A DNA stretch of 47,749 nucleotides from Elusimicrobiota bacterium (GTDB taxonomy: Bacteria; Elusimicrobiota; Elusimicrobia; UBA1565), in NCBI GenBank assembly GCA_043819795.1, contig JBDREN010000151.1:1-47749 (forward strand). The letters run 5' to 3'. Below are positions 7,851 through 34,411 of this stretch, piece after piece. The position numbers and the translations under genes are program-made. Below the pieces are notes generated by a model. The model had not been told where the DNA came from. It searched no databases and saw only the letters and a program-made list of their open reading frames with translations. Numbering within the stretch: position 1 is the stretch's first letter; each line of letters starts with the position of its first letter.

Positions 7851-7941
7851 CGGTGAGGCAGGGATTCGAACCCTGGAAACGGGGATTAACCCGTTTAACG
7901 GTTTAGCAAACCGCCCCCTTCAGCCTCTCGGGCACCTCACC
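7851..7941 (-). tRNA. tRNA-Ser(GCT), 91 nt, CCA not encoded
   Basis: Acceptor GGTGAGG/CCTCACC plus discriminator G; anticodon arm GCGGT-TTGCTAA-ACCGT; long variable arm AAACGGG/CCCGTTT; T-arm CAGGG-TTCGAAT-CCCTG. Confidence 0.97.
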
Positions 7942-15210: not shown

Positions 15211-16137
15211 TTACCACGCTGATTGTTCCCGCGCTTTCCCCCATCGCCAAGTCACACTGAAGCGGTGGGCCGAGCCGAGCTCCCCGAAAGGCTCGAAGGC
15301 GTAGTCCATTCTGTTGTCGCCCAGAAGCCACCCGATGCCGGCGGCGATCCCCGGGCCCGCGTCGTTGCGCGTGCCGTATCCCATGCGGAGCGGCAGTGCC
15401 CCGGCCACGACCGTCTCGACGCCCACGGCCATATTGGGGCTTTGGCTGCGCTCCTTCGTAACGTCCAAGGACAGGGTGTTCCACTGCCCTCCCAGCGCGA
15501 AGCGGTAGGCGGCGCCCATGCGGAGGTTCAGGGGCAGGTTCTCCCTGGCCTGCTGATACGTCACGGTACGCCCCATGTTCTGGACGGACATGCCCAAAGT
15601 TAGCCGCTCGACCGCCGGCACGTCGTAGAGGGCCCCAGCGTCGAAGGCGAGGCCGCCGGCCGAGATCCCGGCGATGGTCTCCCGGATCCATTTCGCCCCG
15701 ATGCCGGCCGACAGCCCGGGCAGCACCGTGCGTCCGTAGCCCAAGCCGACGGCGATATCATTGAGCGTTGCCGTCTCGCCGGTCCCGCCGGGCTGTGAGA
15801 TGGTCGTCCTCGGAACGTCCCCGAACCTGAGGAAATTCAGGTTCGCCCCCCACCCCTGTGCCGAAGCCAGCCCGAAGTATTCTTGCGCGACCCCCTGGAA
15901 GTACTCGTTGTGCATGAAGGTCGTTTCCAGCCGGTCCGTCCTCGCCAGCCCGGCCGGATTGTAAAGGAGCGCGTTGGCGTCCGAGGCCAGGGCCGTATAG
16001 GCGCCCGCCAGGCCCACGGGCCTCGCGTCGGCATCGAGGAACAGGAAATTCAAAGGCTCGGCGCCCGCGCCCCCCCAGCAAGGGCGCGCCAGGAACATCG
16101 CCAAGACGAATAGTTTAACGGTCCTGAAGGCGCTCAT
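15211..16137 (-). CDS. PorV/PorQ-like (UPF0164) outer-membrane beta-barrel
   Basis: FL..DARPVGLAGAYTALASDANALLYNPAGLA N-terminal motif, amphipathic strands, C-terminal DYAFEPFGELGSAHRFS; ATGA-coupled to the upstream giant gene. Confidence 0.88.
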   Translation of the reverse strand: MSAFRTVKLFVLAMFLARPCWGGAGAEPLNFLFLDADARPVGLAGAYTALASDANALLYNPAGLARTDRLETTFMHNEYFQGVAQEYFGLASAQGWGANLNFLRFGDVPRTTISQPGGTGETATLNDIAVGLGYGRTVLPGLSAGIGAKWIRETIAGISAGGLAFDAGALYDVPAVERLTLGMSVQNMGRTVTYQQARENLPLNLRMGAAYRFALGGQWNTLSLDVTKERSQSPNMAVGVETVVAGALPLRMGYGTRNDAGPGIAAGIGWLLGDNRMDYAFEPFGELGSAHRFSVTWRWGKAREQSAW

Positions 16138-19100
16138 CTGATGATCAGTATCTTCTTCACGACGGCCGCGTGTCCGGGGCTCTCGATCACGGCAAAATAG
16201 CCACCGGAGGCCACATGCTGCCCTGTCGTATTCTTTACGTCCCACTGCAGCTTGCCCGACGGATTGTCCGCCCCGAAACGATCCACCAGCTGGCCCGTGA
16301 TGGTGTAGATCTTGACGTTCACCGAAGCCGGTAGATTGTCGAATATGATTCCCGAGTTGGGGTCCGCGGAGCTGTACGGCACGCCGTCGTCCGAGCTTCC
16401 GCTGTTGGGCATGAACGGGTTCGGATAGACGCGGACGGTCATGAGGTCGGCGGCAGCCGCCGGCCCGAACAAAGCGAAGAAGCTGAAATGGGACGTCAGT
16501 CCGGTCACGGTCTTGCCGGCCGCATCGACGCTTGATGAAAGATCTTTCACCCAGGGCCCCGCAATCGTGGCGGCCGAGTACATGTCCAGGTCCGAGACCC
16601 GGATCACCGTTCCGTCAACGATACCGTCGTCGTTTACGTCTGGATAGGTCAAGACAATCGTCGCGGTCTTGCCCCCGCTGAGGGACGTCTGTCCGTTGGA
16701 GAGCGTCACCTCCGTGACCACGTTGGCCGCCTCCATGTCGGCCGGCGCGGGCGGGACGCTCGCGGGTTTGTTGACGACCGTGACGGTGACGGTCGAGGTG
16801 TTCACGGCTCCCGAAGGGATGGTCACCTTCGTGATCTGGGCCGAGTCGTCGTCCGCCGCCTGGACGGTGTTCGTCACCGCGCTGTTGATCTTCTGAGCCT
16901 TCTGGAGCTTCCCGGCGACGACGCTCTCATTGATGTCGAAATCAATGGTGTCGACCGCGATGCTCACCGTCGGAGGGGTCGCGTCGGCGTTGTTCTGGAT
17001 ATCCGCGGCGACGGCGCGGATATCGTGGTTCGCCGCGGAAAGACCGGTGACATCCCAGTGGACATAATACGGGGCGGTCCGGTCCGGATTCGGATTCTCG
17101 GCGCTGGCGGGGACGATATCGGTCCACGCCGACGCGTTGGAGGCCCGGTATTGGAAGCGGATCCGCTTGATCTGCGCCGCGTCCCCCAGGATGACTTCGG
17201 CCGCGACGCTCACGCGGTCTCCGGTCACCTTGCTGCCGGCCGCGGGGGACCTGATCGCGGCGCGGACACCCTGCAACGTGCTCAGAGAGGCGGCGGAGGC
17301 CAGCAAATGCGTGTTCGGATCCTCGACGCCGCACCTGTTGTGGGTCCGCAGCGCGAACCGATAGGCCGCGCTCGAGGGCAGTACGGCGGTCGTGTAGCTC
17401 GTCTCGGTCGAGGTCAACACGGCCAGCGGGGCGGAGTAATCAACGGTCCCGGTCCCGGTGTCGTAATAGAGGCGATACGCGGTGATCCCTTCGGACGGCG
17501 AGGGGGTCCAGCTCAAAGCGATGCGGTTCCCGGCCAAGGACACGGCCTCGAGGTTGCTCGGAGCCAGCGGCGTGGAGCTCTTGGTCTCGAACTGGACTGC
17601 GGAGTCATAAGCCGTCGCGACGGCGTCGCCGTTTATGTTGCGGACCCGGAAATAATAGGTCGTGCACATCCCAAGGCCCGGATCGGTGAAGGCCGTCGCG
17701 ACCCCCGCGAAGACGTTGCCGAAGGCCGCGTTGTCGGTCGACCGCTGCACTTCGGCGGTCGTCCCGGCCGGATTCGAGTTGAGCCCCCAGGTGATCGTCG
17801 CGCTCGTCGTCTGCACGTCGGAAGCGGCGGTGCCTGTCGGCGGATTGGCGTGCGTATATGCGGCCGCGGTGGCGGAGTCCGCGCTGCTGGGCCCGTTGAA
17901 TGCCCGCACGAACAGCGGCCCCGACTGCGTGTTCGTCGAAACGCCCGTCTGCGTCCACGAAGCGGTATCGGCCGGCAGATCCCCTGATAGGCTTGCCGTC
18001 CCCGACATCACGCGGAAACCCTGCTCGTCGTTCGAGTTGTCCGTCCAGGACCAACGTATCGACGCTTCTCCCAGGGCCGCGCCCGCGAAGCCGGAAGGCG
18101 CTGCGGGAGCCGGCGGCACATATAGGCTCTGCTCCGCGGACTCGGCGCTGCGCAAGAGCTCGCCGTCCTCCGCGACCACGGCCCAATAGTACGTCGCGCC
18201 GTTTTGCGCCGCTAGTTTCAGGCCTCTCTGCGAGGCGGACAGGCGGACGCTGTAAAGCGAGGACCCTCCTCCGGAGGCGCCGTCCAAGCCGTAGCGCGGG
18301 GGGATCTTTAGGATGCCGCCCCCGCCGGGACTCGTCCCCAGCCGCACGAAGTAATTGAGCGCGGCGGCCGGGGTTTGCGCGTCGGAGCCGGCATCCCAAC
18401 GCAGGCTCAGAACGCCCGAGCTGGTCGAGCCCGCATACTGCTCGAATGACAAGCCGAAACCCGAGTTGGGCGCGCCGGGGTCGCTGTGCGCGGACAAAAG
18501 GAGGTTCTGCGCGATGACGACGTCCTGGCCGAGCTGGTTCGAGAACGCCAGGTCCAAGTCCCCGTCGTTGTCGTAGTCTCCCCACGAGACGCCGTGCGTG
18601 TCCCCGGTCGAGTCCGCGATGGCGAACTGCGAGAACGCCCCGTTGTTGTTGATCGCGACGGTCTCGTGCTGGCCGACGAAGTTGGCGAACGCCAAGTCCA
18701 GGTCCCCGTCGTTGTCGTAGTCGCCCCAGGCGAGGCCGTGCGAGGCGCTGTCCGCTCCCGGAAGCGCGACCTTCGTGAACGCTCCTCCGCCGTCGTTGCG
18801 CGCGAGGTATTGGCCCCCGTACGAGTTAGCCGCCGCGAAATCCAAGTCCCCGTCGTTGTCGTAGTCGCCCCAGGCGAAGCCGTACGAGGGCCCGCCCGTC
18901 CCCGCCAGCGAGAACCCCGCGAACGTCCCGTTCCCGTCGTTGCGGGCCAGGTAGTCGTCACCCGGACCGGCGAACCCCAGGTCCAGGTCCCCGTCGTTGT
19001 CATAGTCTCCCCAAGCGACGCCCTGCGCAGTTCCATTCACCCCCGGCAGCGTGAATGTGGAAAACGTCCCGTCGCCGTTGTTGCGCGCCAGGGATTCGTA

Positions 19101-22100
19101 CTCCCCGTAACCGTTGCCGACCGCCAGGTCCAGGTCCCCGTCGTTGTCGTAGTCGCCCCAGGCGATGCAGAACGAGCTCCCCCCCATCCCCGTCAGAGCA
19201 AGGGTCGTAAACGTCCCGTCGCCGTTGTTGCGGGCGACATATTGGTCTTGTCCCCTGTTGGCCACCGCCAAGTCGAGGTCCCCGTCGTTGTCGTAGTCGC
19301 CCCAGGCGACGCTCTCCGAGTCGCCGCCCGTGCCGGTCAGAACCACTTTCGTAAACGCGCCGCCGCCGTCATTGCGCAGGAGATACTCATCCTCTCCGCT
19401 CGTGTTGGCCACCGCCAAATCCAGGTCCCCGTCGTTGTCGTAGTCGCCCCAGGCGATGCCCCGGGAATCCCCCCCTGAGCCCGTAAGGACGTGAACGGAG
19501 AACTGGTTCGGCGCCAATGTGGCGGCGACGACCGTGTCGGTGAAGCCGGTCGGTATAGCGTCGTTGTTCAGCGCGCGGACCTTGTAGGAATAGGTCGTCG
19601 CGGGCGTGAGGCCCGTGTCGGTGAAGGCGGCGGCGGTAGGCGTGGATATCCGGACGAAGCCGGACCCCGTGTCCCGGTAGACCTCGAAAAACGTCCCGCC
19701 GGGGTTCGTATTGGCGGACCACAGCAATCCGATGGTATCGGTGGAAACCGTGGCCGCCGCGAGACTGGTGGGAGCGGCCGCGAGCGTGAACAGGGAGTCG
19801 GAGCCCGAGTTCGCCGTATTGGAGCCCCGGAACACTTGGACGAATAGGGGCCCCGCCAGCGTATTGGTCGAAAGCCCCGTCTGCGTCCAGGAGGTGGTGT
19901 CGGCCGGAAGATCGCCCGAGATGTTCGCCGCGCCGTACATCACGCGGAAGCCGTCCTCGTCGCTGGAGTTGTCGGTCCAAGACCAGCGGACTGCAGTCTG
20001 CCCCAATACCGTCGCCGCGAAGCCGGAGGGTGTGGCGGGATGCGTGGGCGCGAAGATGCCCTGCTCGGCCGACTCGGCGCTGCGACGAAACTCGCCGTCC
20101 TCCGTCACGACGGCCCAATAATACGTCGCGTCGCGCGGAAGCGAGAGCTTCAGGCCCCTCTGCGAGTTTGAGAACCGGCCGCTGTAGAGGAACCCTCCGG
20201 ACAGGCCGTCGGGGCTGTAGCGCGCGGGGACTTTTAGGATCTCGCCGCCGCCGGGGGTGGTGCCCACCCGTACGAAGTAGTTGAGCGCGGCGGCCGGGGT
20301 CTCAGAGTCGGCGCCTGCCGCCCACTGGAGGGTCAAAATCCCGGAAGCGGAGCCCGGGGAATGCTCCTGGAACGAAGAACTGAAACCCGCGCTGGGCGCC
20401 GTGGGGCTGGAATGCGTTCCAGCGATATCGTTGCGGGCGATGTATTGGTCCGCTCCTCCCTGGCCGGCCACCGCCAAGTCGAGGTCCCCGTCGCCGTCGT
20501 AGTCCCCCCAGGCGATCCCGTAGGAGTCGCCGCCCGTCCCCGGCAAGCCGATCGCCGTGAACGTGCCGTCGCCGTTGTTGCGAAGGACATAATCGGCCTG
20601 CGGACTACGATTGGATACGGCCAGGTCCAGGTCGCCGTCATTGTCGTAGTCGCCCCAGGCGATTCCACGCGAATCTCCGCCTGTGCCGGTGAGCTCGATC
20701 TTCGTGAACGTCCCGTTGCCGTTATTGCGGGCGATGTATTCGTCCTCACCGGACTGGTTCGCGACTGCCAGGTCCAGGTCCCCGTCGTTGTCGTAGTCGC
20801 CCCAGGCCAACCCGACGGAGTCCCCCCCCGTCCCGGCCAACGTGCCCGTCGAGAACGATCCGTCGCCGTTGTTGCGCACGAGGGCTTCGTCCTCGGAGCC
20901 GAGATTGGCCACGGCCAGGTCCAGGTATCCGTCATTGTTATAGTCGCCCCAGGCGATGCCCGCGGAATCCCCTCCGGTTCCGGAGAACGTGACGGTCGAG
21001 AACGAGCCGTCGCTGTTGACCCGGGCGATGTATTCGTTCTCGCCGTTCCGATTGGAGATGGCCAGGTCCAGGTCCCCGTCGTTGTCGAAATCGCCCCAGG
21101 CTACGGCTTGAGAGGCTCCGCCCGAACCGGCCAACACGATCTTCGTGAAGACGCCGCCCCCGTCGTTGCGCGCGATGTACTCGTCCTGCGACCCGGATGA
21201 GTTGGCCACCGCGAAATCAAGGTCGCCGTCGTTGTCGTAATCGCCCCAGGCGATCCCGTAGGAGTCTCCGCCGGTCGTCGCCAGCGTGCTTTTCGTGAAC
21301 GTCCCCCCTCCGTCGTTCCGCAGGAGGAATTCATCCTCAGCGCCGGCGTTGGCCACCGCCAGGTCCAGGTCCCCGTCGTTGTCATAGTCGCACCAAGCCA
21401 GGCCCGACGAGTCACCGCCTGTGCCGGCTAAAGTCTGAATGGTGAACGGGGGCGCGGCCCCTGTCGTCGTTGAGACCGTGGCGCTGAAAGCGGTCGCTAT
21501 GGACTCTCCATTGAACGCCCGCACCTTGTAGGTGTAGGTGCTGAACGTGGCAAGCTCGGCGTGCATGAAGCTCGTCAAAGTGCCGGAGCCCACCGCCACG
21601 AAGCCCGCCCCGCTGTCCCGATGGACCTCGTAGAGCGTGCCGGCGGGATTGCCGTCGGCGGACCAGCCCAGCTGTATGGTCGTGAAGTAGACATCCGTGA
21701 CGGCGAGGCCGGAAGGCGGGGCGGCGAGCGTATGGGCGGAAGCCGTGCCGGAGGCGGTGGTTCCCCCGATGTTGACGGCCAGAACGTAATATGGCCCGAC
21801 CTGCGTGTTCGTCGAGACGCCGGTCTGGACCCAATACGTCGTGTCGGCCGCCAGTTCGCCGGAAAGGTTCGTTCCGCCCGACATCACACGGAAACCGGCC
21901 TCATCGGCGGAGTTGTCCGTCCACGACCAGAGGATCGAGGTCGGGCTCAGGGCGGTTCCCGAAAAATCGGAGGGCGCGTACGAAGGCGGCGGCGGCACCA
22001 GCAGGCTCTGCTCGGCCGATTCCGAGCTGCGCAGGAGCTCGCTATCTTCGGTGACCACGGCCCAATAATAGGTCGCCCCGCGCTGCATTGACAGCCTCAG

Positions 22101-23519
22101 GCCACGCTGAGTGCTCGACACGCGCACGCTATACAAGGAAGACCCGCCGCCCGAGAAACCGTCTAGGCTGTAGCGGGCGGGGACCGGCAGGATTTGACTC
22201 CCCCCGGGGACTGTACCCACGCGAACGAAATAATTAAGCAGCCTCCCCGGAGTCTCGGCGTCGGAGCCCGGGGTCCATTGCAGAGAAAGGACGCCGGAGG
22301 TGGAATATAGGGAGTACTCCCGGAAAGAGGCTGCGAACCCCCAGGTGGGCGCGCTGGGGCTATTGTGCGTCGCAGCCAAGTTGTTGCGCACGATGAGCTC
22401 ATCCTCGGCGTCCGCGTTCGCCACGGCCAGGTCCAGGTCGCCGTCCCCATCGTAGTCGCCCCAACTGATGCCGCGGGAATTCCCCCCTGTTCCGGTCAAC
22501 GTATTTATTGAGAATGCTCCACTCCCCTGGTTGCGCGCGATGTATTCGTCCTGGCCGTTGGCGCCGGCCGCCGCGAAGTCGAAGTCGCCGTCGTTGTCGT
22601 AATCGCCCCAGGCCACGCTTTGGGAGGCTCCCCCCGTCCCCGCCACCGTGACCTTTGAGAAGGTTCCGTCGCCGTTGTTGCGCGCGACATAGTCTTCCCG
22701 GTCGCTGTTGGCCACAACGAGGTCGAGATAACCGTCGCCGTCGTAATCTCCCCAGGCGATCGATTCAGAGCTGCCGCCGGTCCCCGTCAAGGTAAAGATC
22801 GAGAACGCGCCATCCCCCTCGTTGCGGGCGACGTATTCATCCTGGCCGGCGACGTTCGATACCGCCAAATCAAGGTCTCCGTCGTTGTCGTAGTCGCCCC
22901 AGGCGATACCCGTGGAGTCCCCGCCCGTGCCCGTCAGGGCCAACTTCGTAAACGTTCCGTCGCCGTTGTTGCGCGCTATGTATTCGTCCTCCCCGCCGGT
23001 GTTGGCCACCGCCAGGTCCAGGTCCCCGTCGTTGTCGTAATCTCCCCAGGCGACGCCGGTCGAGTTTGCCCCCATGCCTGTCAAGGCGATTTTCGTGAAC
23101 GTCCCGTCGCCGTTGTTGCGGGCGATGTATTCGTCCTCCCCGGCGGCGTTGGCCACCGCTAAATCCAGGTCGCCGTCGTTGTCGTAGTCTCCCCACGCGA
23201 TTCCTTGGGAACTGCCGCCTGTGCCGGTCAACGTGACTATGGTGAAGGAACCGTCGCCGTTGTTGCGCGCGATCAATTCGTCTTGCCCGCTTGCGCCATC
23301 GTTGGCGATCGCCAGATCCAAATCCCCGTCGTTGTCGTAGTCGCCCCAGGCGACGCCCAGGGAGTCTCCGCCTGTGCCGGTTACAGTGCTGGTAGAAAAC
23401 TGCCCACAAGTAAGCGCCGGGAAGGAGATGGACAAGAACAAGACGAACAACAGACGGAGCCACAGGAAGCTGCGGATGGCGGGAAGTCCGTCTCGGGGCC
23501 GCGGAGGCCGTTGCCTCAT
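16134..23519 (-). CDS. 2,461-aa secreted FG-GAP/VCBS repeat protein: three 7-bladed propellers, FN3/Ig domains and a T9SS-type C-terminal domain
   Basis: 21 WGDYDNDGDLDL-type repeats in three blocks of seven; FN3 motifs; C-terminus VYPNPF...VKIYTITGQLV...WD...VASGGY...KKILIIR. Confidence 0.9.
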   Translation of the reverse strand: MRQRPPRPRDGLPAIRSFLWLRLLFVLFLSISFPALTCGQFSTSTVTGTGGDSLGVAWGDYDNDGDLDLAIANDGASGQDELIARNNGDGSFTIVTLTGTGGSSQGIAWGDYDNDGDLDLAVANAAGEDEYIARNNGDGTFTKIALTGMGANSTGVAWGDYDNDGDLDLAVANTGGEDEYIARNNGDGTFTKLALTGTGGDSTGIAWGDYDNDGDLDLAVSNVAGQDEYVARNEGDGAFSIFTLTGTGGSSESIAWGDYDGDGYLDLVVANSDREDYVARNNGDGTFSKVTVAGTGGASQSVAWGDYDNDGDFDFAAAGANGQDEYIARNQGSGAFSINTLTGTGGNSRGISWGDYDGDGDLDLAVANADAEDELIVRNNLAATHNSPSAPTWGFAASFREYSLYSTSGVLSLQWTPGSDAETPGRLLNYFVRVGTVPGGSQILPVPARYSLDGFSGGGSSLYSVRVSSTQRGLRLSMQRGATYYWAVVTEDSELLRSSESAEQSLLVPPPPSYAPSDFSGTALSPTSILWSWTDNSADEAGFRVMSGGTNLSGELAADTTYWVQTGVSTNTQVGPYYVLAVNIGGTTASGTASAHTLAAPPSGLAVTDVYFTTIQLGWSADGNPAGTLYEVHRDSGAGFVAVGSGTLTSFMHAELATFSTYTYKVRAFNGESIATAFSATVSTTTGAAPPFTIQTLAGTGGDSSGLAWCDYDNDGDLDLAVANAGAEDEFLLRNDGGGTFTKSTLATTGGDSYGIAWGDYDNDGDLDFAVANSSGSQDEYIARNDGGGVFTKIVLAGSGGASQAVAWGDFDNDGDLDLAISNRNGENEYIARVNSDGSFSTVTFSGTGGDSAGIAWGDYNNDGYLDLAVANLGSEDEALVRNNGDGSFSTGTLAGTGGDSVGLAWGDYDNDGDLDLAVANQSGEDEYIARNNGNGTFTKIELTGTGGDSRGIAWGDYDNDGDLDLAVSNRSPQADYVLRNNGDGTFTAIGLPGTGGDSYGIAWGDYDGDGDLDLAVAGQGGADQYIARNDIAGTHSSPTAPSAGFSSSFQEHSPGSASGILTLQWAAGADSETPAAALNYFVRVGTTPGGGEILKVPARYSPDGLSGGFLYSGRFSNSQRGLKLSLPRDATYYWAVVTEDGEFRRSAESAEQGIFAPTHPATPSGFAATVLGQTAVRWSWTDNSSDEDGFRVMYGAANISGDLPADTTSWTQTGLSTNTLAGPLFVQVFRGSNTANSGSDSLFTLAAAPTSLAAATVSTDTIGLLWSANTNPGGTFFEVYRDTGSGFVRISTPTAAAFTDTGLTPATTYSYKVRALNNDAIPTGFTDTVVAATLAPNQFSVHVLTGSGGDSRGIAWGDYDNDGDLDLAVANTSGEDEYLLRNDGGGAFTKVVLTGTGGDSESVAWGDYDNDGDLDLAVANRGQDQYVARNNGDGTFTTLALTGMGGSSFCIAWGDYDNDGDLDLAVGNGYGEYESLARNNGDGTFSTFTLPGVNGTAQGVAWGDYDNDGDLDLGFAGPGDDYLARNDGNGTFAGFSLAGTGGPSYGFAWGDYDNDGDLDFAAANSYGGQYLARNDGGGAFTKVALPGADSASHGLAWGDYDNDGDLDLAFANFVGQHETVAINNNGAFSQFAIADSTGDTHGVSWGDYDNDGDLDLAFSNQLGQDVVIAQNLLLSAHSDPGAPNSGFGLSFEQYAGSTSSGVLSLRWDAGSDAQTPAAALNYFVRLGTSPGGGGILKIPPRYGLDGASGGGSSLYSVRLSASQRGLKLAAQNGATYYWAVVAEDGELLRSAESAEQSLYVPPAPAAPSGFAGAALGEASIRWSWTDNSNDEQGFRVMSGTASLSGDLPADTASWTQTGVSTNTQSGPLFVRAFNGPSSADSATAAAYTHANPPTGTAASDVQTTSATITWGLNSNPAGTTAEVQRSTDNAAFGNVFAGVATAFTDPGLGMCTTYYFRVRNINGDAVATAYDSAVQFETKSSTPLAPSNLEAVSLAGNRIALSWTPSPSEGITAYRLYYDTGTGTVDYSAPLAVLTSTETSYTTAVLPSSAAYRFALRTHNRCGVEDPNTHLLASAASLSTLQGVRAAIRSPAAGSKVTGDRVSVAAEVILGDAAQIKRIRFQYRASNASAWTDIVPASAENPNPDRTAPYYVHWDVTGLSAANHDIRAVAADIQNNADATPPTVSIAVDTIDFDINESVVAGKLQKAQKINSAVTNTVQAADDDSAQITKVTIPSGAVNTSTVTVTVVNKPASVPPAPADMEAANVVTEVTLSNGQTSLSGGKTATIVLTYPDVNDDGIVDGTVIRVSDLDMYSAATIAGPWVKDLSSSVDAAGKTVTGLTSHFSFFALFGPAAAADLMTVRVYPNPFMPNSGSSDDGVPYSSADPNSGIIFDNLPASVNVKIYTITGQLVDRFGADNPSGKLQWDVKNTTGQHVASGGYFAVIESPGHAAVVKKILIIR

Positions 23520-23655
23520 GGCGTTGGTTCCGGCGTCTGCGGATTCAACGAGAAGAAAGTTGGAATCGTCTCGAAGTTAGTAAAACTCCGACACTGGTCG
23601 ATTGCCAGCAGCGCAGATTGTCGGCTGGCCTGGAGGCTCAAATGGGGTAACGTCC

Positions 23656-25704: not shown

Positions 25705-25722
25705 GAAAGCCGCCTCTCACGC

Positions 25723-28134
25723 CTATTTCACGCCGATCTTCACGATCTCCCTCTTGCCGCCGGCATCCACCACGCAGATGTAGCCTCCCATCTCCACATG
25801 CCGCCCGTCGCCCGACCTACCGTCCCAAAACACCTCATTGGGACCGATTCGCCCCCCGTTCGATCCCGCGCTGTAGCGGGTGTCCCGAGCAAGCCGGCCG
25901 AACGGATCGTAGATGCGGATCCTTACGTCCCGGTTCTGGTCCAGGGAGTAGCGGATTCGGGTCTGTTGCCCCCGCAGCGGCGAAAACGGGTTGGGGTAGT
26001 TCGTAAGACTCTCGAGAGCGCTCGCGGCCGGGGAAAAAGCCATTATCCCGAAGAGCGTGAAATGGTCTACACGGCCCGTGACCTTCCTGGTCACCGTATT
26101 CACACTGGAGTTCGGTATCAGCACCCAATAGCCCCGCGACTCGTCGTAGTAGAACAGCCGCAGGCTCGCTTCATCCATCCCCGCCACGTCGACGGCCGTG
26201 TAGGTGAGGGTGATCGTGATGTCCTTCTGGAATCGCGTGGTGCCGTTCACCATCTGGATATCCTTGATGACAGAGGTGGCCGTTACCCCGGATCCCTTTG
26301 AAGAAGGCGGTGATCCGACGGGTGGTTGGATGTTGATCAAGGTCGCGGCGGACAGCGCGCCTGCCGGTATCTCCACCTTCACGCCGTCGGCTGTCTCGAG
26401 AACGGAGTCGCCTGCGGGGTCCACCGTGGCATCGACAATGAACTTGTAGTGGATCGCCTGCGTGCCGACGTTGCCTGCGCCGTCTTTGGCGACGGCGTGG
26501 AAGTACCAGGTGCCGTTCGTTAGGAGCGATCTCGCCTGGATCGGATTCGGGCTGAAGTCGTCCGAGGCTGCCGGCACGCCTCCCGGGTTCCTGTCGATCA
26601 TCCAGTGATACCCTGCTATGCCGGACGGATCATTCGGCCCTGAGAGGTTGAATGCCGGGTTTATTGCAGGGTAGGCGACGTTCTGATTCGGATGGGACGG
26701 CGAGGTCGCGGCCGTCGGAATGTCGGGAGCGGTCCGGTCGACCAAGGTCCCGGCGCTCCAGCCGGAGTATCCGGTATAATCCCCATCCAGATTCCTCGCT
26801 CGGACCCGCGCGTAGTATATCTTGTCCCCCTGAGCGCCCGATATCGTTTGGCTGAGCACATCTCCAACATCCCCGTCGAAAATGCTGGCGTCATTGGAAT
26901 CCGAGTCGGTCCCTATCTGAATATAGTAGCCGGAGATCCCGCTCTCGGGGTCCGAGGCGCTCCCCTGCCCCCAAGCAAAAGTCATCGTCCCGGAAATTGA
27001 GAAGGCATCGCCAACAGGAACGGAGGGGATCCCAAGAGGTCCGGTCGTGTCGGGAACCCACATGCCGAACCGGAGACCCGCGTCAGTCGTCCCGTAGATG
27101 ATCAGCGTATTCCCGGTTGGATCGAACCCTAGGGCGGGAATGTACCAAAGCGATGTCCGCAAATCCTCGACGCTAGACGAGATCCAACTCCGACCGTTCC
27201 ACTTCGCGTACATTGGGCTGGCATGGGGATGAGCTTCCGCAATGAAGCTGATCTCCGGATTATCGGCGGAGTCGAGCACGATAGACGGCTGATGAGGCTG
27301 GCCCAGCGAGACCGTCTGCGTGGACCACGCGACTCCCGTCCAGCGAGCGTACTTCACGGATCGGGGATCATCCCAACCATAGGCGATATGCGGGATCCCC
27401 GCGGAATCGACCGCGATAGAGACTTCTCTAGTGAGTGTCGCTTCTACGGTTTGGGTCGACCAAGAGACCCCGTTCCATTCGCCATAACCCAAAGAAGCGC
27501 CATAATGATCGTTGTACGCGATGTGAGGCTTTCCGGCCGGGTCAAGAGCCAAAGAGCTATAGAGCCCGAACCCCCATACCTCGGCGATCGTCATTGTCGA
27601 CCAGGAGACACCCGTCCATACTGCGTATTTAAGATCGCGGCAGTCGTTACCGCAGTAGCTGATATGCGGATTCCCAGAATCATCGACGGCGATCGAGGCC
27701 ATCGCGTCCGGAAAAGTCGTGATGGCCCCAGCCGGGTCGACAAGCTGAATGTCCCAAAGGAGTCCTTGAAATCTCGCGTACATCAGTCCCTGATCTTGGT
27801 GATAAGCTATATGCACGCCACCAAAGTCGTCCACGTCGATAGACGGCTTCCACCGGTTCCCCGTCGAGCTGGCGGCCGAATCAACGAACTGGGATGTCCA
27901 GCCCGAGCCGGTTCTCTTGATGTGTCGCAGCGTATCGGGGTCCCAGTCGAGACAGGCGAGGTGGACATCGCCCGCGGAATCCACGACCATGTTCGAGCAA
28001 GTCATCCCCCCCGTGGGGAACGATTCAAAAGACCATAAAGCTTCCGCCCGATGGACGAAAAGCGTCCCCGCGCCCAGGAGGGCCAATGCCAGACCCCCAA
28101 CGAAACATCTCATCGGTCTCTCGGCTCCTTTCAT
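25723..28134 (-). CDS. Secreted protein with propeller-like repeats, FN3 domains, a ZU5-like region and a T9SS/FlgD-Ig-type C-terminal domain
   Basis: Repeated SIAVD..G.PHIAY...LKYA.W.G..W; C-terminus NYPNPF...IRIYD..G.L...WDGR...GGY...KIGVK. Confidence 0.82.
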   Translation of the reverse strand: MKGAERPMRCFVGGLALALLGAGTLFVHRAEALWSFESFPTGGMTCSNMVVDSAGDVHLACLDWDPDTLRHIKRTGSGWTSQFVDSAASSTGNRWKPSIDVDDFGGVHIAYHQDQGLMYARFQGLLWDIQLVDPAGAITTFPDAMASIAVDDSGNPHISYCGNDCRDLKYAVWTGVSWSTMTIAEVWGFGLYSSLALDPAGKPHIAYNDHYGASLGYGEWNGVSWSTQTVEATLTREVSIAVDSAGIPHIAYGWDDPRSVKYARWTGVAWSTQTVSLGQPHQPSIVLDSADNPEISFIAEAHPHASPMYAKWNGRSWISSSVEDLRTSLWYIPALGFDPTGNTLIIYGTTDAGLRFGMWVPDTTGPLGIPSVPVGDAFSISGTMTFAWGQGSASDPESGISGYYIQIGTDSDSNDASIFDGDVGDVLSQTISGAQGDKIYYARVRARNLDGDYTGYSGWSAGTLVDRTAPDIPTAATSPSHPNQNVAYPAINPAFNLSGPNDPSGIAGYHWMIDRNPGGVPAASDDFSPNPIQARSLLTNGTWYFHAVAKDGAGNVGTQAIHYKFIVDATVDPAGDSVLETADGVKVEIPAGALSAATLINIQPPVGSPPSSKGSGVTATSVIKDIQMVNGTTRFQKDITITLTYTAVDVAGMDEASLRLFYYDESRGYWVLIPNSSVNTVTRKVTGRVDHFTLFGIMAFSPAASALESLTNYPNPFSPLRGQQTRIRYSLDQNRDVRIRIYDPFGRLARDTRYSAGSNGGRIGPNEVFWDGRSGDGRHVEMGGYICVVDAGGKREIVKIGVK

Positions 28135-28168
28135 ACGACGCGGACGCGGTCAGCGGCTCCGAAGCGTC

Positions 28169-28675
28169 CTACGGCTTCTTGCCCGCGGCCTGCTCGATCT
28201 CCTCCTTGCGGAGCTCGTCGAAGAGCTCCTCGGAGCGCTTATTGAGGAACTTCTTCGTCCTCTCGGTGAGCTGCGGCGCGTTCTGCATCACCCTCCTGAA
28301 CTCGTCGAGATCCAGCTTGGCCAAAGAATGGATCGTTTCGCCCTTCTCGTATCTGTCCACGATGCGGACGCCCGAGATGTGTCCTGCGCTGAAGGTCTTG
28401 ATCACGCGGTCCACCATCTCGCCTTCCGTGCCGTCGTACTCCTTCATTAGGTAGCCGGTGTAGGTGTCGAAATACCTCTGAAGGTCGGCGCGGGCCCGGT
28501 TGTCGGCGGCCTCCATGCGCAGGTTCCTGCTGCGTATGCCCTCATCCGCTTGCCCGACGCCGTAGAACACCTTGTCGCTCGGCTTGAACGCGGCCGAGCC
28601 CTTCTTCGCCCACTTGGGGGTGCCGGCGCACCCCGAAATCGCGGCTATGATAGCCAAAATGGCGATTCGTTTCAT
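28169..28675 (-). CDS. LPP20-like lipoprotein
   Basis: MKRIAILAIIAAISG-C lipobox, P.W, FYGVG, AADNRARADL; SD GGGAGG. Confidence 0.75.
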   Translation of the reverse strand: MKRIAILAIIAAISGCAGTPKWAKKGSAAFKPSDKVFYGVGQADEGIRSRNLRMEAADNRARADLQRYFDTYTGYLMKEYDGTEGEMVDRVIKTFSAGHISGVRIVDRYEKGETIHSLAKLDLDEFRRVMQNAPQLTERTKKFLNKRSEELFDELRKEEIEQAAGKKP

Positions 28676-28751
28676 GTCGCGCCTCCCGGCCGATGGCTCA
28701 TCAGTCCTAATAGTACTAGCGGTAATTGAGCGCGGACCGAACATCCATTCC

Positions 28752-29765
28752 TCATTTGCGGGCTTTCCTGGATCTGATCTCATAGGACGCGACCTGCATC
28801 GTCCATTCGTAGCGCTCCAGCTTGGCGAGCCTACGCATGACCTCCGCCATCTTCCCCATGCTCACGGCGGCGTACGGATCTTGCCGCCTCAGCGGGACCG
28901 CAGCCTCCGGGGGCATGAGTTCCTTCTTGGCCGCCACAACCAAGAGCCTTTCGGTGACTACGGACTCTCCGCGGGGCAGCATCGCCCTGTAGGCTATGCC
29001 GCTGCCTTCGCCCGGGATATCGACCAGCTCGCCGGCCTTCACGCGGTTGTCCGTCTGTAGACGGTTGGGAAAGACCATGAAGATGTTGTCCCGGCTGTCC
29101 CAGCTGAAGACGTATAAGCGGGCGTCCCTCGATACCGACAACGCGATCCGCACCGGCTCGCCTTCGTAGTATTGGCTTCGGTCGATCCCAAGGGGCGTCC
29201 CCGAACGGCGGTCCAATATCTGGAACGCGGGGTCGACAGCCCCCTTGAATACGATCGTCCCGCGGACGCGGACCCGGCAGGTCGTGACGCCGTCCCCGAC
29301 ATCGCACTCCGGCTCCCCGGCCTTCTCGTTCATGAGCAGCCCGCGGTTGGAGGAGAAAAGAAACCTCGCCACGGCTTCGTAGCGGTCCTTCCCCATCTGG
29401 GAGGAGTAGTCGCTGAAGCCGTAGAAGATGTCCGTGCCCTTGCGCATCGCCTTGGCACGGGCGTCCTCCTTCGCCCGCCTCACGGCCGTTTCTTGGGTTT
29501 CGTGACTGAGGGCCTTCCCGACGCCGGTCTCATCGAACCGGACAGTCTCGTCTTCGGTCCGCGTCCACGATTCCGCCGGACTCGGGACGGACCCTCTCCT
29601 GAGCCTATCCGACTCCGGCCCCGCATATTCTCGCTGGGCCGTCCCCTTCTCAAGCGTCCGCATCTCGCGCAGCCCCTCGTCCAGGCGCGGCTTCATACTC
29701 GCGGGCGCGGGGGGGCCGGCGCAGGAGGCCGAGAGCACCAGCGCCGAAATGAGCATCCACCTCAT
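28752..29765 (-). CDS. Lipoprotein with a C-terminal DUF4384-like domain
   Basis: Lipobox SAS-C; Y..GEPVRI......DARLYVF.......MVFPN......VKAG...IP pattern. Confidence 0.75.
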   Translation of the reverse strand: MRWMLISALVLSASCAGPPAPASMKPRLDEGLREMRTLEKGTAQREYAGPESDRLRRGSVPSPAESWTRTEDETVRFDETGVGKALSHETQETAVRRAKEDARAKAMRKGTDIFYGFSDYSSQMGKDRYEAVARFLFSSNRGLLMNEKAGEPECDVGDGVTTCRVRVRGTIVFKGAVDPAFQILDRRSGTPLGIDRSQYYEGEPVRIALSVSRDARLYVFSWDSRDNIFMVFPNRLQTDNRVKAGELVDIPGEGSGIAYRAMLPRGESVVTERLLVVAAKKELMPPEAAVPLRRQDPYAAVSMGKMAEVMRRLAKLERYEWTMQVASYEIRSRKARK

Positions 29766-29935
29766 GGTTTTTGCGTTCCGAGCTCTTTTTCGAACTCCGC
29801 CTCTCCCTGGGCGGGCGGCAGCTCCTTGAACAGGGATTCAGCCCTCATGCGGACATCGTTCTTGGGCGGCGAAGCGCAGCCCAGAGGCATTATCCCTAAT
29901 GCGAGCGCCAGCAACGCCGCCGTCAGCCGAGACAT
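29762..29935 (-). CDS. Small 57-aa lipoprotein
   Basis: MSRLTAALLALALGIMPLG-C lipobox; SD GGGAG; ATGA coupling to the next gene. Confidence 0.7.
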   Translation of the reverse strand: MSRLTAALLALALGIMPLGCASPPKNDVRMRAESLFKELPPAQGEAEFEKELGTQKP

Positions 29936-30089
29936 GGTCTCCCGCTTCTTCGATAGAATGGGAAACCCGCACGCGCCGGCATGCCGGTGGAGAGCTATGA
30001 TCCAGTCCAAGGGGGACCTCCTGAAAAAATTCACCCCTTGAGAAGGGAGAGGCCGGGATAGGACGGCCTCGAGACCCTCCTCACATCTT

Positions 30090-30238
30090 AGTATACCCCG
30101 CATATCCGGCCTCCGCAATGCAAAAATCCAGCCGAATCCGGCGGTTCCGCTTGAGGTTCCTCTCGACGGAGGCTGGCGTCCGGACGGGACGTTTCGGTTT
30201 GATGTCGCATTGCATCTCCCCAGCGAGCGGGCTATACT
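30090..30238. promoter_or_regulatory. Back-to-back sigma70-like promoters
   Basis: Minus: TTGCGG(30118-30113)-17-TATACT(30095-30090). Plus: TTGCAT(30210-30215)-17-TATACT(30233-30238). Confidence 0.6.
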
Positions 30239-30366
30239 TACTTTTGTCAAGTAGAGGGCCCTGGGAGGCCCAGTCCTATCCACCGGAACCTCCCAGGACC
30301 GAAATCCTCGTTATCCCTATTAGCGGAGAACCGGACGAAACCGAACACCCGCGGACCCGCCGCAAA

Positions 30367-30984
30367 ATGCCGGAAAACCAAATCGAGCCTCTAGCGAGCT
30401 CCCTGACGCTGGTCAGGCAGGCCAAAGAAGGCGACACCGAGGCGCTCGACGCGCTCTTCAGGCGCTACGCCTCCCGCGTGCTCCATATCGCCCGCGTCCG
30501 GCTCGGGCCGGGCTTGCGGACGAGACTGGACTCCCAGGACATCGTCCAGGAGGCCTTCATCCGCGCGGTCAAAGGGTTCGGGAAGTTCGAGGTCCGGCAT
30601 GAGGGGGCGTTCCTGCACTGGATGAGCGAGCTGGTCAGGAACGCCATCCGCGACCAATACGACTATTTCCACGCGAAGAAGCGCGCGATGTCCAGGGACG
30701 TGGCCCTCATCCGGCCCACCGATTTGACGGACCACGGGGCTGCGACCGTCCCTGGGTTCGACCCTACGCCCAGCCGGGTGTTCGCGGCGAGGGAGGACAT
30801 CCAGAAGCTGGTCGATGCCATGGACCGGCTCCCCGAGGAAGCCCGGGAGGCTGTGGTGCAAAGGGATATGGAAGGCCTGCCCTTCGCCGAGATCGGGAAG
30901 ATGATGGGCCGCTCGGAGGACGCGGCGCGCATGCTCTACGCCCGCGCCAAGGCCAAGCTGGCAGCCTTGATGCAGGCCTCATAG
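30367..30984 (+). CDS. ECF sigma factor of the kinase-associated (planctomycete-like) type
   Basis: AKEGDTEALDALFRRY, LRTRLDSQDIVQEAF, HAKKR, TPSR, region 4 HTH; followed by a Ser/Thr kinase. Confidence 0.88.
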   Translation: MPENQIEPLASSLTLVRQAKEGDTEALDALFRRYASRVLHIARVRLGPGLRTRLDSQDIVQEAFIRAVKGFGKFEVRHEGAFLHWMSELVRNAIRDQYDYFHAKKRAMSRDVALIRPTDLTDHGAATVPGFDPTPSRVFAAREDIQKLVDAMDRLPEEAREAVVQRDMEGLPFAEIGKMMGRSEDAARMLYARAKAKLAALMQAS

Positions 30985-30986
30985 CG

Positions 30987-33368
30987 ATGGGCGATTCCGA
31001 GAAGCCGACCAGCGTTGACGCCATCATGGAGGCCTTCCTCGAGGCGCAGGCCAGAGGCGAGGCTCCCGACCAGGAAGCCCTCTTGAAGGAGCATCCCGAG
31101 CACAGAGAACAGTTTCAAGCCCGTCTCGCTGCCTTGGGCCGGGTCGACGACTGCTTTCGCATGATCCGCGAAAGCTCCTCGCAGGGAGACGGGCCTAGGG
31201 TCGAGATTCCTAAGAACCTGCGGATCACCGGGTACCGAATACTGGACAAGATCGGCGAGGGGGGCATGAGCGCGGTCTTCCTGGCGGAGCAGACCGCTCT
31301 CAAGAGGCTGGTGGCCCTCAAGGTCATGTCCCCGGCGTGGTCCAGCGACGCGCGCTCCATCGCCCGCTTCAAGCGCGAGGCGGAGACCATCGCCCGGCTC
31401 GCGCATCCGGGAATCGTGCCCATCCATCACTTCGGGGGTGAGGATGGGACCCACTTCCTGGTCCTCGATCTCGTCTCCGGCATCGACTTGGGGAGCCTGA
31501 TCCAAGGACTCAAGGGATCCGGCGTCCCGGAGAACGGACTCCCGGTCCTGGAGATCATGCGAGGGCGTATGGACCGGATCGGCGCGGTCGCCGCCGAGCA
31601 TGGGAAGCGGCCGGACGATCCGGGAGCCGACAAGGAGTTCTGGTCACGGCCCTATCCCGAGATTTGCGCAACGATTCTCCGTGACGTGGCGGCCGCCCTG
31701 GAATGCGCCCACGAGAAAGGCGTGATACACCGCGACATCAAGCCGTCCAACATCATCGTCTCACCGGACGGCAAGCCTCGGATCATAGACTTCGGGCTGA
31801 CGCTTCCCGAATCGGCGGACGCCCTGACGCGGTCGACGGACTTCCTCGGCACCGTCCTGTACGCTTCGCCCGAGCAGGTATCGGGAAGCGCGCACGACGT
31901 GGGGCCTCAGAGCGATCTGTTCTCTTTAGGCGCGGTCATGTACGAGCTGTTGACCCTGCGGCGGCCCTTCGAGGGAGGATCCCTCTCTGAGGTCTTCGAG
32001 AAGCTGACCCGGCAAGACCCCCCCTCCATGCGGAGACAGACGTCTCAGGTCCCCCCTGATTTGGAAACCATCTGCTTCGTGGCCCTCGAGAAGGAAGGCA
32101 AGCATCGCTACGCCTCGGCCAAGGAGCTCAAGGACGACCTCCAACGGTTCTTGGACCACCGCACGATAAGAGCGCGGCCCACTCCGCTCATGCGGAGACT
32201 GGGCAAGCTGATCCGCAGAAATCCCGTTCCCATCGCCGCGGCGGCCCTCCTGCTCGCGGCAGGCGGGGGTTTCTGGTGGAAGCTCGCCCATACGCGGTCC
32301 ACGGCATCGCAGGCGAGCCATGAGCTGGCCGAGGCGCGGTCCAGGCTTGAGCAGGCCCGCGAGGCCTCTGAACAAGATGTGCGGCAGGAACGATACCTCC
32401 GCATCGTCTCTGAAGGAAAGGCATTGCTGAAAGAAGGCCATTCGGAAAGGGCGCAGAAGTTGTTCTCCGATGCGATAGAGCTGGCGCCGGAGAGGCCGGA
32501 AGCATACCTCACCCGCGCCGAAGCCTCCTTTCTATCAGAATCGGGTCTGTCGCATGCCCTGGCCGACATCCGGAAGGCGGAAGCCCTACAAACGCCCGGC
32601 CGGGATGCCCTGACCTTGAAGGCGGCCGTCCTCCACCGTCTAGGAAGGAACGAAGAGAGCATCCAGACGGAAAGGGAGATCCTGAGGCGTTTCCCGAACG
32701 ACCGCGAGGCCTCGATCAGGCTGTCCTACAGGCTGATGGAATCCAAGGAGTACCCCGAAGCCGCTAGCCTTCTTGAGGAGCGCATCAAGAGCAACCCCGA
32801 CGACCCCGAGCTTCTAACGGCCGCGGCCTGGGCCGACCTGGGGCTCGAGAGGGTCGAAACAGCGTTGGCGCGCGCCGGAAAGGCCGCACGGATCGCTCCG
32901 AGCAATGCGTCGGTGCATATGGCGCTGGGGCACGCGTTGATGCGGTCGAAGCGCTATGCGGAGGCCGCCGGCGCCTTTTCACTATTGCTCAAGGTGGAGC
33001 CCGCCAACGTCAAAGCGAGGCTCCTGTGCGCCGAGGCCCTGACTCTGGCGGGCGAGCTGGAGGCGGGAGAAAGACAGTTCCTCGCGTCCCTGGACCAGGG
33101 CGCGGCCGATGCGCGGGCGCTTCAGGGACTGGCTGGGAATCTGGTCCGGCAGGGCAGGGTGGAGGAAGCGGTCGGGCTATACAAGCGGAGCTTGGCGGCG
33201 GGCGAAGGGAACGCGAGCACGCTCATCATGATCGCGGAGTTGCTCGAAATCGTCGGCCGCCCCGATGAAGCCGTCGATTTTTATGAAAGAGCCGGCAAGC
33301 TCGCCACCTCCGACAGCGACCGGCAGCACGTCAAAGAGAAGCTCGACAAGCTATTGAACAAGCCGTAG
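30987..33368 (+). CDS. Hanks-type Ser/Thr protein kinase with a TM segment and C-terminal TPR array
   Basis: IGEGGMSAV, VALK, HRDIKPSN, DFGL, GTVLYASPEQ, SDLFSLG; TM IAAAALLLAAGGGFWW; multiple TPRs. Confidence 0.95.
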   Translation: MGDSEKPTSVDAIMEAFLEAQARGEAPDQEALLKEHPEHREQFQARLAALGRVDDCFRMIRESSSQGDGPRVEIPKNLRITGYRILDKIGEGGMSAVFLAEQTALKRLVALKVMSPAWSSDARSIARFKREAETIARLAHPGIVPIHHFGGEDGTHFLVLDLVSGIDLGSLIQGLKGSGVPENGLPVLEIMRGRMDRIGAVAAEHGKRPDDPGADKEFWSRPYPEICATILRDVAAALECAHEKGVIHRDIKPSNIIVSPDGKPRIIDFGLTLPESADALTRSTDFLGTVLYASPEQVSGSAHDVGPQSDLFSLGAVMYELLTLRRPFEGGSLSEVFEKLTRQDPPSMRRQTSQVPPDLETICFVALEKEGKHRYASAKELKDDLQRFLDHRTIRARPTPLMRRLGKLIRRNPVPIAAAALLLAAGGGFWWKLAHTRSTASQASHELAEARSRLEQAREASEQDVRQERYLRIVSEGKALLKEGHSERAQKLFSDAIELAPERPEAYLTRAEASFLSESGLSHALADIRKAEALQTPGRDALTLKAAVLHRLGRNEESIQTEREILRRFPNDREASIRLSYRLMESKEYPEAASLLEERIKSNPDDPELLTAAAWADLGLERVETALARAGKAARIAPSNASVHMALGHALMRSKRYAEAAGAFSLLLKVEPANVKARLLCAEALTLAGELEAGERQFLASLDQGAADARALQGLAGNLVRQGRVEEAVGLYKRSLAAGEGNASTLIMIAELLEIVGRPDEAVDFYERAGKLATSDSDRQHVKEKLDKLLNKP

Positions 33369-33521
33369 CTCATCGCCTCTCCGTCGGAGAACGGTCTGCG
33401 GCACTTACAACACTTTTTACAACACTTTGGCGTCAAAACGGGATACGAAGCGAGCGCTGCTGATCTTAACTGTCGTCGGAGAAACGTCTTTAGGCGGGGT
33501 CTTAGGCGGGGCCCAGGCAGA

Positions 33522-33568
33522 TTAGCAAACCGCCCCCTTCAGCCTCTCGGGCACCTCACCTTTCGACG
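33522..33568 (-). repeat. Duplicate of the tRNA-Ser 5' half plus 8 bp (junction att between the large and mini elements)
   Basis: 47/47 identical to 7903-7949; stops at the anticodon loop. Confidence 0.95.
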
Positions 33569-33858
33569 TCCATCCAAGCATTTCCGACGGATTAGAGCAA
33601 GACGGAGAACGGTCCGCGGCACTTACAACACTATTTACAGTGCTTTGGCTTTCGCTGATATTTATCGAAGAGGATTTGGATGCTATTGGCGTCGCGCACA
33701 ATCTTCCCGGGGCGAGTCGCGGGGCTGGGATCCACCGAGGCATGCCGAAGCCCGAGAGTTCCTCCGGCCGGACCAAGCCGCGGCTGTTCGTCTAATAACG
33801 GAAGCGGCGGTGTCCGCGCCGCCGATCCAAAAGTATCGAAAGGTTCAGCCAGACGACC

Positions 33859-34372: not shown

Positions 34373-34411
34373 TAGCAAACCGCCCCCTTCAGCCGCTCGG
34401 GCACCTCACCT
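34373..34411 (-). repeat. Displaced, probably original chromosomal tRNA-Ser 5' half
   Basis: One D-loop mismatch against the intact gene; different upstream flank. Confidence 0.9.

Follow-up and report, generated by a model that had tools for sequence, protein, structure and literature searches.

The contig analysed here (the window: 47,749 nucleotides, nt, one entire contig, JBDREN010000151.1, of the Elusimicrobiota assembly GCA_043819795.1) carries, on a tRNA-integrated island, a cassette that joins a PorV-type barrel fused to an exported caspase with DUF4384 and LPP20-like lipoproteins, with secreted cargo proteins bearing a C-terminal domain (CTD) like that of type IX secretion systems (T9SS), and with a divergent pair of genes for a sigma factor of the extracytoplasmic function (ECF) type and a Hanks-type kinase. 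We class it as a variant of trans-envelope signaling built from known parts, whose core is real and conserved; the block as a whole is a mosaic of that core plus optional parts, not one seven-gene unit. Our preferred reading, to which we give a probability of about 0.4, is that the cassette is a horizontally moved modular envelope system relaying a surface signal inward by proteolysis, with the kinase then switching on the ECF factor. The source genome (4.99 Mb, 90% complete) is called G000 below; G003, G012, G036, G047, G318, and G369 are genomes compared with it, and L numbers denote loci.

A sequence-only reading of this DNA had described seven co-oriented genes, closely spaced and divergent from the ECF and kinase genes, and all nine are indeed there (Table 1). 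Eight of them have Pfam or NCBIfam support, and the 57-aa lipoprotein has profile support. Measurement bears out the spacing: ATGA overlaps join the 57-aa lipoprotein gene to the DUF4384 gene and cargo 2 to the second PorV, and the other gaps in the operon are 76, 34, 18, and 136 nt. No sigma-70 or ECF-like promoter match was found for the operon itself. The lipoproteins of the cassette have no paralogue elsewhere in G000, and the smallest of them has a counterpart at the same place in G047; its similarity to the N-terminus of the DUF4384 protein (profile probability 92%) comes partly from the signal peptide.

The arrangement is not peculiar to this contig. Homologues were surveyed with the DUF4384 lipoprotein as seed, and 34 loci were read, 27 of them in the window's clade ("close loci"); L132, L133, L139, L140, L141, and L144-L148 were dropped as repeats of counted loci, while L138 and L150, with an identical DUF4384 protein, were both kept. 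Co-occurrence in other genomes had been named as a test of the cassette, and homologues do co-occur in many genomes; nearly all close homologues with a named record belong to Elusimicrobiota. DUF4384, LPP20-like, CTD cargo, PorV, and caspase are found all together in 11 of the 27 close loci, and barrel and caspase are one polypeptide in 10. A caspase lies within 12 kb in 17 (16 on the same strand, one convergent), the other 10 being cut by a contig or locus edge, and an LPP20-like homologue lies within the same distance in 19. Gene order within the core varies, and one full-set locus (L128) comes from another phylum. Where the barrel is absent, the caspase bears WD40, TPR, TIG, or propeller domains instead. 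Divergence of caspase and DUF4384 protein is weakly correlated, and their nearest neighbors agree in 10 of 17 loci (Mantel rho 0.25; 129/10,000 permutations, the kin not being independent). Of 18 homologues picked out of 150 by length or repeats, two have the entire two-domain DUF4384 module fused to a caspase (in both orders), two have it fused to LPP20, and three to CsgG-like domains. Regulators differ from locus to locus: a divergent XRE gene stands beside the core in one clade, a CHASE2-cyclase gene lies behind the fusion in G012, and the remaining loci mostly show a divergent XRE gene or no regulator within view. The G012 locus (L062:7227-12825) runs from the fusion to a CHASE2-adenylate/guanylate cyclase and a FlgO-DUF4384 gene, possibly an alternative output module.

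At the center of the cassette is the PorV-caspase. It carries a signal peptide, and its model (mean predicted local distance difference test score 73, from an alignment of 10 sequences) resolves into a 14-strand barrel (residues ~80-300), a 52-residue helix (304-355), a helical hairpin, and a caspase domain (~430-682). The barrel matches T9SS PorV chains (best Foldseek match 8gl6_F) and FadL; the caspase part matches MALT1 and metacaspases. PF00656, the caspase fold, and a His509/Cys560 dyad place the enzyme in C14 (clan CD), and the dyad is intact in all 21 module caspases examined. Barrels of the FadL/PorV family keep both termini in the periplasm, so that a caspase following an even-stranded barrel would hang there. 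The model thus predicts a periplasmic enzyme, suspended on a helix of about 75 angstrom alongside the lipoproteins and the kinase TPRs, with cargo bound outside. Eight full-length PorV-caspase fusions (36-69% identity) are present in the protein collection, and the caspases of the window and of G047 form one clade with six such fusions that includes none of 21 other host caspases. Caspase and/or PorV matches to the fusion were seen in 61 of 61 relatives, and many of the 22 caspase-domain proteins of G000 are predicted lipoproteins, with tandem arrays on C107 (four) and C175 (three); exported caspases are expanded across the lineage.

Such a protein could also serve to mature or shed surface proteins: a barrel-tethered clan CD protease and its lipoproteins would process the CTD cargo that belongs to them, or envelope proteins, in the manner of a fused PorV-PorU, with the ECF/kinase pair or XRE gene controlling expression only. 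PorU, a clan CD protease of the gingipain type, is bound to PorV and acts on the surface; its catalytic region was not found in G000 (90% complete), where NF033707 matched only a CTD region (992-1094). Cargo 1 and the fusion recur together in G369, G012, and G036, where neither a kinase nor an ECF was seen (the G369 contig ends just upstream), and regulators change among loci while the core persists, as a processing machine would allow. Three observations make this account somewhat unlikely all the same: the predicted periplasmic caspase lies away from a surface-docked cargo, whereas PorU acts at the surface; in at least 19 of the 20 cargo-PorV pairs of G000 the barrel lacks a caspase domain; and between G000 and G047 the caspase tracks DUF4384, not PorV.

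Table 1. Features of the cassette and of the island that carries it, in window coordinates
Feature	Position	Strand	Remarks
57-aa lipoprotein	29762..29935	-	lipobox Cys and one helix resembling the N-terminus of the DUF4384 lipoprotein
DUF4384 lipoprotein, 337 aa	28752..29765	-	PF14326, E 8e-16; alpha/beta N-domain and Ig-like DUF4384 domain
LPP20-like lipoprotein, 168 aa	28169..28675	-	PF02169, E 6e-4, under cut-off
CTD cargo 1, 803 aa	25723..28134	-	signal peptide, propeller-like repeats, C-terminal T9SS/FlgD-like tail
PorV-caspase, 682 aa	23656..25704	-	NF033709, 94.9 bits (cut-off 90); PF00656
CTD cargo 2, 2461 aa	16134..23519	-	three FG-GAP clusters (20 motif matches), fn3 repeats, CTD
Second PorV-like barrel, 308 aa	15211..16137	-	NF033709, 151 bits
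Promoter-like motif TWAG..GGAnAA..CGAAC	30320..30346	+	20 nt upstream of ECF start
ECF sigma factor, 205 aa	30367..30984	+	planctomycete-like; TIGR02984, 144.9 bits (under cut-off 183.75)
Hanks-type Ser/Thr kinase, 793 aa	30987..33368	+	catalytic motifs intact, C-terminal TPRs
Intact tRNA-Ser(GCT)	7851..7941	-	its 5' part (7903-7949, including 8 upstream bases) is one island end
Other island end: displaced 5' fragment of tRNA-Ser(GCT), 47 nt	33522..33568	-	identical to 7903-7949
Tyrosine integrase of the island	7959..9002	-	just inside the tRNA end
Conserved element (family D19) adjoining the island end	33385..33431	not assigned	also 7965-8011, 33603-33649, 34236-34282
AbiEi/AbiEii type IV toxin-antitoxin pair	13199..14979	-	own sigma-70-like promoter match, 15047-15019

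The DUF4384 lipoprotein is likely a partner or substrate of the caspase. A complex prediction for the caspase domain with this lipoprotein scored 0.12 against a mark of 0.32 and is counted neither way. Fold searches with the DUF4384 model gave middling Ig/macroglobulin-type matches over residues 160-322 (best Z 8.5, root-mean-square deviation 2.2, 93 residues aligned) and barely covered the N-domain; we do not read a protease-inhibitor function from matches of this quality. A guess that the N-domain is LPP20-like is without profile support, and sequence searches found no solved relative of the LPP20-like lipoprotein or of cargo 1. A single-pattern search of viral contigs returned no DUF4384 relative.

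The cargos and their barrels belong to a wider habit of this genome. G000 has 29 PorV-like genes, 39 proteins ending in a CTD, and 22 proteins with a caspase domain, and 20 of the 29 barrels directly follow a CTD cargo gene. Across those 20 pairs, CTD similarity and barrel similarity correlate (rho 0.45, 0/10,000 permutations; nearest neighbors agree in 9 of 20), a pattern compatible with cognate pairs or with co-duplication. By gene order and this correlated divergence, cargo 1 is likely the cognate cargo of the PorV-caspase barrel. The second PorV is likely the shuttle of cargo 2. Both barrels score above the NF033709 cut-off for the PorV/PorQ family, while the CTD-like tails match PorZ/PorU C-termini and TIGR04183 only under their cut-offs, homologous tails scoring as FlgD_ig. 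An SprA-like gene lies outside the island in G000 (a 1,889-codon frame with three TIGR04189 segments, under cut-off) and likewise in 5 of 5 other genomes tested. GldM and GldN were not found in the 90% complete genome, where control searches also gave no match.

In T9SS, type A CTDs are paired with PorV, and type B CTDs in Flavobacterium johnsoniae with a cognate PorP/SprF (PMC12618676). The likeness to those cargo-shuttle pairs lies in a predicted secreted protein with a CTD-like tail, encoded directly before its own PorV/PorQ-family barrel, and in the presence of an SprA-like gene, though one that scores under its family cut-off. The pairs described here differ in standing outside Bacteroidota, in having one PorV-like barrel per cargo where T9SS shares a single PorV, and in a barrel that carries a C14 caspase.

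Cargo 2 and the second PorV resemble an ordinary host-type display pair, a likely passenger at the end of the operon. Their nearest relatives are two host pairs (61-62% identity for PorV, 64-66% for the CTD), whose PorV genes also follow giant cargos, and no module locus read has a second cargo/PorV pair of this kind. The proposition that all seven genes form one conserved system is rejected on these grounds. The claim of a single self-contained seven-gene circuit is too wide: kinase and ECF factor are optional, cargo 2 and its barrel are host-like, and the island lacks the host SprA-like gene that export would need. Elsewhere, G000 has giant open frames, of 6,600 to >12,000 codons (C218:1-36813, C19:2355-32348, C56:19549-39171), and those on C218 and C56 end in a CTD, each followed by a PorV-like gene.

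On the other side of the intergenic region, ECF and kinase genes are 2 nt apart, with no anti-sigma gene beside the ECF gene. The kinase has a single predicted transmembrane segment, a moderate hydrophobic stretch (residues 416-434; mean Kyte-Doolittle 1.5, and 2.1 in G047) before its TPRs, which are predicted from sequence to be periplasmic. In our alignment, the ECF factor reads D-S-Q-D where canonical ECFs have DAED; the three orthologues have DSQD, ESQD, and QSMD, with Ser56 invariant. The promoter-like motif, whose pattern was defined after the fact, precedes the ECF gene in G000, G047, and G318; the best match between G000 and G047 extends over 21 of 30 nt and was reached by 0 of 200 shuffles, and the similarity of G318 is not above shuffles. 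It is probably autoregulatory. Of 301 phylum genomes, only G000, G047, and G318 have close orthologues of the two proteins, and each of the three has both, as a pair; within the order, the ECF gene is present in 2 of 101 genomes.

G047 gives the most telling comparison. Kinase, ECF factor, mini-lipoprotein, DUF4384 and LPP20 proteins, PorV, a WD40-caspase, and a small CTD cargo are encoded there in the same divergent layout, at identities to the window of 47% (kinase), 59% (ECF), 44% (DUF4384), 66% (LPP20), and 64% (caspase), while PorV (26-27%) and CTD (27-35%) have been swapped and are no closer to those of the window than random paralogues. All eight genes have a GC content at third codon positions of 0.65-0.81 against 0.95-0.98 in the flanking sugar-synthesis cluster, from which we conclude that they arrived together; the cassette has been transferred jointly in two genomes. 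No flanking direct repeat or integrase was found around the G047 block. The cassettes of G047 (L203:6943-14980) and G369 (L213:3127-6602) both sit inside a surface-sugar (nonulosonate-type) biosynthesis cluster.

Several findings weigh against a relay of the kind we favor. The kinase/ECF pair stands beside only 2 of the 27 close loci (2 of 34 overall), and since the DUF4384 proteins of G000 and G047 are sisters (96/95), that pairing represents one acquisition; the homologue scans used a single peptide pattern that missed the window's own sub-clade, so 2/27 may be an undercount. In G318, genes for a PEGA protein and an LPP20-like lipoprotein stand opposite the pair, together with a CsgG/FlgO-like gene, and no DUF4384 or caspase gene was found in the 32 kb read. 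The promoter-like motif occurs only before the ECF gene, and no copy points at the operon. EcfP is phosphorylated on the Thr at the third position of its motif STTA, whereas the Ser here is at the second. The G047 caspase is fused to WD40 and not to a barrel, and in six other close loci no PorV was found near the caspase, so the barrel tether is dispensable. A distant DUF4384-lipoprotein subfamily lies between two giant polyketide-synthase-like genes (a label from sequence motifs, with no family scan), usually without an adjacent caspase. Finally, PorV genes, CTD cargos, and caspases are common enough in G000 that some adjacency comes cheap. The outcome that was to refute the sequence-only reading (homologues that never co-occur, or unrelated distributions of kinase/sigma pair and operon) was not obtained: homologues co-occur, and G047 has both parts in one block of foreign composition.

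Two of these cases have more to them. The G318 pair lies inside a prophage-like region (L114:8788-17642). The distant DUF4384 subfamily (L063, L066, L067, L069, L070, L159-L183) was matched by its profile in 78 of 101 genomes of the order, often with a 50-aa lipoprotein before it, and a caspase gene is directly upstream in L063, L162, L164, L165, and L168. A separate widespread operon (L119-L125, for example L122:6452-10039) encodes what we take to be LPP20-like, LpoB-like, and larger lipoproteins and a second LPP20-domain protein; it is likely the source family of the cassette's LPP20.

Mobility is plain from the ends of the island. A 47-nt perfect direct repeat, corresponding to the 5' half of tRNA-Ser(GCT), bounds 25.6 kb, and a tyrosine integrase gene lies within; the island on which the sequence-only reading had placed the genes is real. 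The published pattern for tRNA-integrated genomic islands (tDNA, displaced fragment, integrase between; PMC4383910) is present, with the displaced 5' fragment upstream of the intact tRNA in the same orientation; islands with a 5' fragment are a minority class in that source (159/3,919). The D19 element, which also occurs at both ends of the G003 island, is likely an integrase arm-binding site, for which it is a candidate. No further copy of the island end was found in G000 besides a remnant at 34241-34418. The window also has an 850-nt tandem remnant in which the tRNA fragment is present as an 85% copy (34372-34418). Across the order, this integrase family targets the 5' half of tRNA-Ser genes (GCT, CGA, TGA), the integrase lying directly upstream of the restored tRNA (L200:11314-19988; L190, L191, L193, L202). 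In G003, a 70% identical integrase with the same tRNA and the same 5' duplication carries a different, 8.6-kb cargo. The island is hence a general vehicle, the idea that the integrase defines the system is rejected, and the integrase island is only the current vehicle of the cassette. Nor does the block have the cargo region to itself, as had been supposed: its nine genes occupy about 18 of the 25.6 kb, which they share with the AbiE pair, a Gp49/HTH pair, an HTH gene, and one unassigned gene. The AbiE toxin-antitoxin pair serves island maintenance and lies outside the cassette.

A vehicle of this sort invites the thought that cargo-PorV pairs, a caspase-DUF4384-lipoprotein trio, and a kinase-ECF pair simply piled up in mobile DNA with no common pathway. 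The idea holds for cargo 2 and the second PorV, and it draws on the unrelated cargo of the G003 island, on the occurrence of every sub-unit alone somewhere, and on foreign inserts that interrupt several loci. Accretion does not readily explain why a four-part core recurs in different gene orders, in several families and a second phylum, why barrel and caspase are so often one polypeptide, or why the divergent layout has been kept between G000 and G047 at 44-66% identity despite swapped cargo, and we consider it distinctly unlikely for the block as a whole.

If the cassette is instead a signaling system, its parts could work as follows. A ligand would be sensed by cargo 1, exported by way of the host SprA-like translocon and docked on the outside of its own barrel as T9SS shuttles hold theirs. 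The docked cargo would activate the caspase, whose action would be on the DUF4384 lipoprotein or in concert with it, LPP20 and the mini-lipoprotein serving as scaffold or modulator; co-occurrence and fusions suggest this division of labor. The kinase TPRs would sense the result, and the kinase would activate the anti-sigma-less ECF factor by phosphorylation, on the model of EcfP/PknT-type pairs. This kinase read-out would be restricted to the present sub-lineage, and cargo 2 with its barrel would be a host-type display pair added to the operon end. DUF4384 is cast as the link on account of its fusions and of two publications. In the first, it is one version of the domain at the C-terminus of Csx30, a sigma-factor-binding substrate of a caspase-like protease (10.1101/2022.08.17.504292); in the second, one bacterial kinase family carries it (10.1101/2025.01.12.632604). 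A review mentions caspases of cyanobacteria that have DUF4384 (PMC7475262).

A more specific proposal would make the PorV-type barrel a single-chain trans-outer-membrane receptor-protease, in which an exchangeable CTD sensor outside switches on the periplasmic caspase, and a cut or released DUF4384 lipoprotein is read by the TPR kinase, which phosphorylates the ECF factor. We hold this version to be unlikely as it stands.

The cassette shares features with several published systems. Like the kinase-activated ECFs (EcfP/PknT, EcfK/PknS; ECF43, 59, 61, 62, 217, and 283; PMC8999054, PMC7826278), the window pairs an ECF factor with a membrane Hanks kinase, without an anti-sigma and with an altered DAED containing a conserved Ser; the best NCBIfam match, the planctomycete TIGR02984, stays under its cut-off, and the Ser is one position off the EcfP site. 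Here the pair is linked to a barrel/caspase/lipoprotein operon, of which the available parts of those two sources make no mention. For DdvA/DdvS, a Myxococcus xanthus system also located in a mobile/defense island, a proteolytic signal to an ECF factor is proposed to start from TPR and caspase-superfamily domains in the periplasm (PMC11506125). DdvA, however, is a zinc anti-sigma of the inner membrane whose CHAT site is incomplete, whereas here an intact C14 enzyme sits on an outer-membrane barrel, the inner-membrane relay is a kinase, and the island annotation has no anti-sigma or CHAT gene. PorA-PorXY-SigP of Porphyromonas gingivalis (PMC7712824) likewise signals from a surface CTD protein via a kinase to an ECF sigma factor, but does so by means of a histidine kinase plus a response regulator, and is described without a caspase or DUF4384/LPP20 lipoproteins; the kinase here is a Ser/Thr kinase. 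Caspase-like protease and sigma factor share a locus in PCaspase/PCk/PCc-sigma (Haliangium type III-B; 10.1101/2023.06.23.546230) and in Csx29/Csx30/RpoE (type III-E; 10.1101/2022.08.17.504292); the Haliangium locus also has a Ser/Thr kinase, and DUF4384 forms the end of some Csx30 proteins. The trigger of those cytoplasmic systems is CRISPR or cyclic oligonucleotides, while protease and DUF4384 protein carry export signals in the present case.

The last likeness suggests a conflict or defense circuit, in which surface propellers would detect phage or predator and caspase and kinase would trigger dormancy or death, as in PCaspase/PCk/PCc-sigma or DdvA/DdvS. The parts list (caspase, Ser/Thr kinase, sigma) is that of the Haliangium system (10.1101/2023.06.23.546230), AbiE and other toxin-antitoxin genes share the island, the sensor-like N-termini of the caspases are highly variable, and two cassettes lie among surface-sugar genes. 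Set against this, the island annotation contains no CRISPR (type III included), SAVED or SAVED-CHAT, cyclic-nucleotide (CBASS cyclase included), or pore-forming effector gene; the caspase is exported, with its signal peptide and barrel; PADLOC matched generic caspase and kinase domains only; and the 22 such caspases of G000, many of them predicted lipoproteins, suggest routine envelope roles. A defense function is, in our view, very unlikely.

The surroundings of the island add some detail. A second AbiEi/AbiEii pair with a short sigma-70-like frame lies on the 3' side of the tRNA (5329-7595), possibly another mobile segment. Past the other end are an integrase-core fragment (37551-38147) and more secreted repeat proteins (38299-47515: LamG-TSP3, FG-GAP-TSP3-FIMAH, beta-helix). 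In sequencing data, one groundwater DNA run contained two short exact pieces of cargo 1, other matches being repeat-like only, and the run search for the cassette listed no RNA run. The literature searched (supplements not covered, subscription journals mostly absent) held no report of a PorV-caspase fusion, of a DUF4384/LPP20/caspase operon, or of PorV in Elusimicrobiota.

To our knowledge, nearly every bacterial caspase with a known role is an immune enzyme of the cytoplasm, and this lineage keeps about twenty exported ones per genome without an assigned job. The cassette ties one of them to a barrel, a cargo, a candidate substrate, and, in two genomes, a transcriptional output, all within a small, testable gene set, and in doing so offers a concrete hypothesis for DUF4384. 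It also documents, outside Bacteroidota, the one-to-one use of T9SS-like cargo/PorV pairs and their movement on islands. A relay of this kind, if real, would be a new architecture for signaling across the outer membrane. Should the receptor-protease version prove true, this would be TonB-free, anti-sigma-free surface signaling with plug-in sensors and outputs (kinase/ECF, XRE, CHASE2-cyclase), disseminated by mobile DNA, and would correspond, in the envelope, to the caspase-DUF4384-sigma circuits linked to CRISPR.

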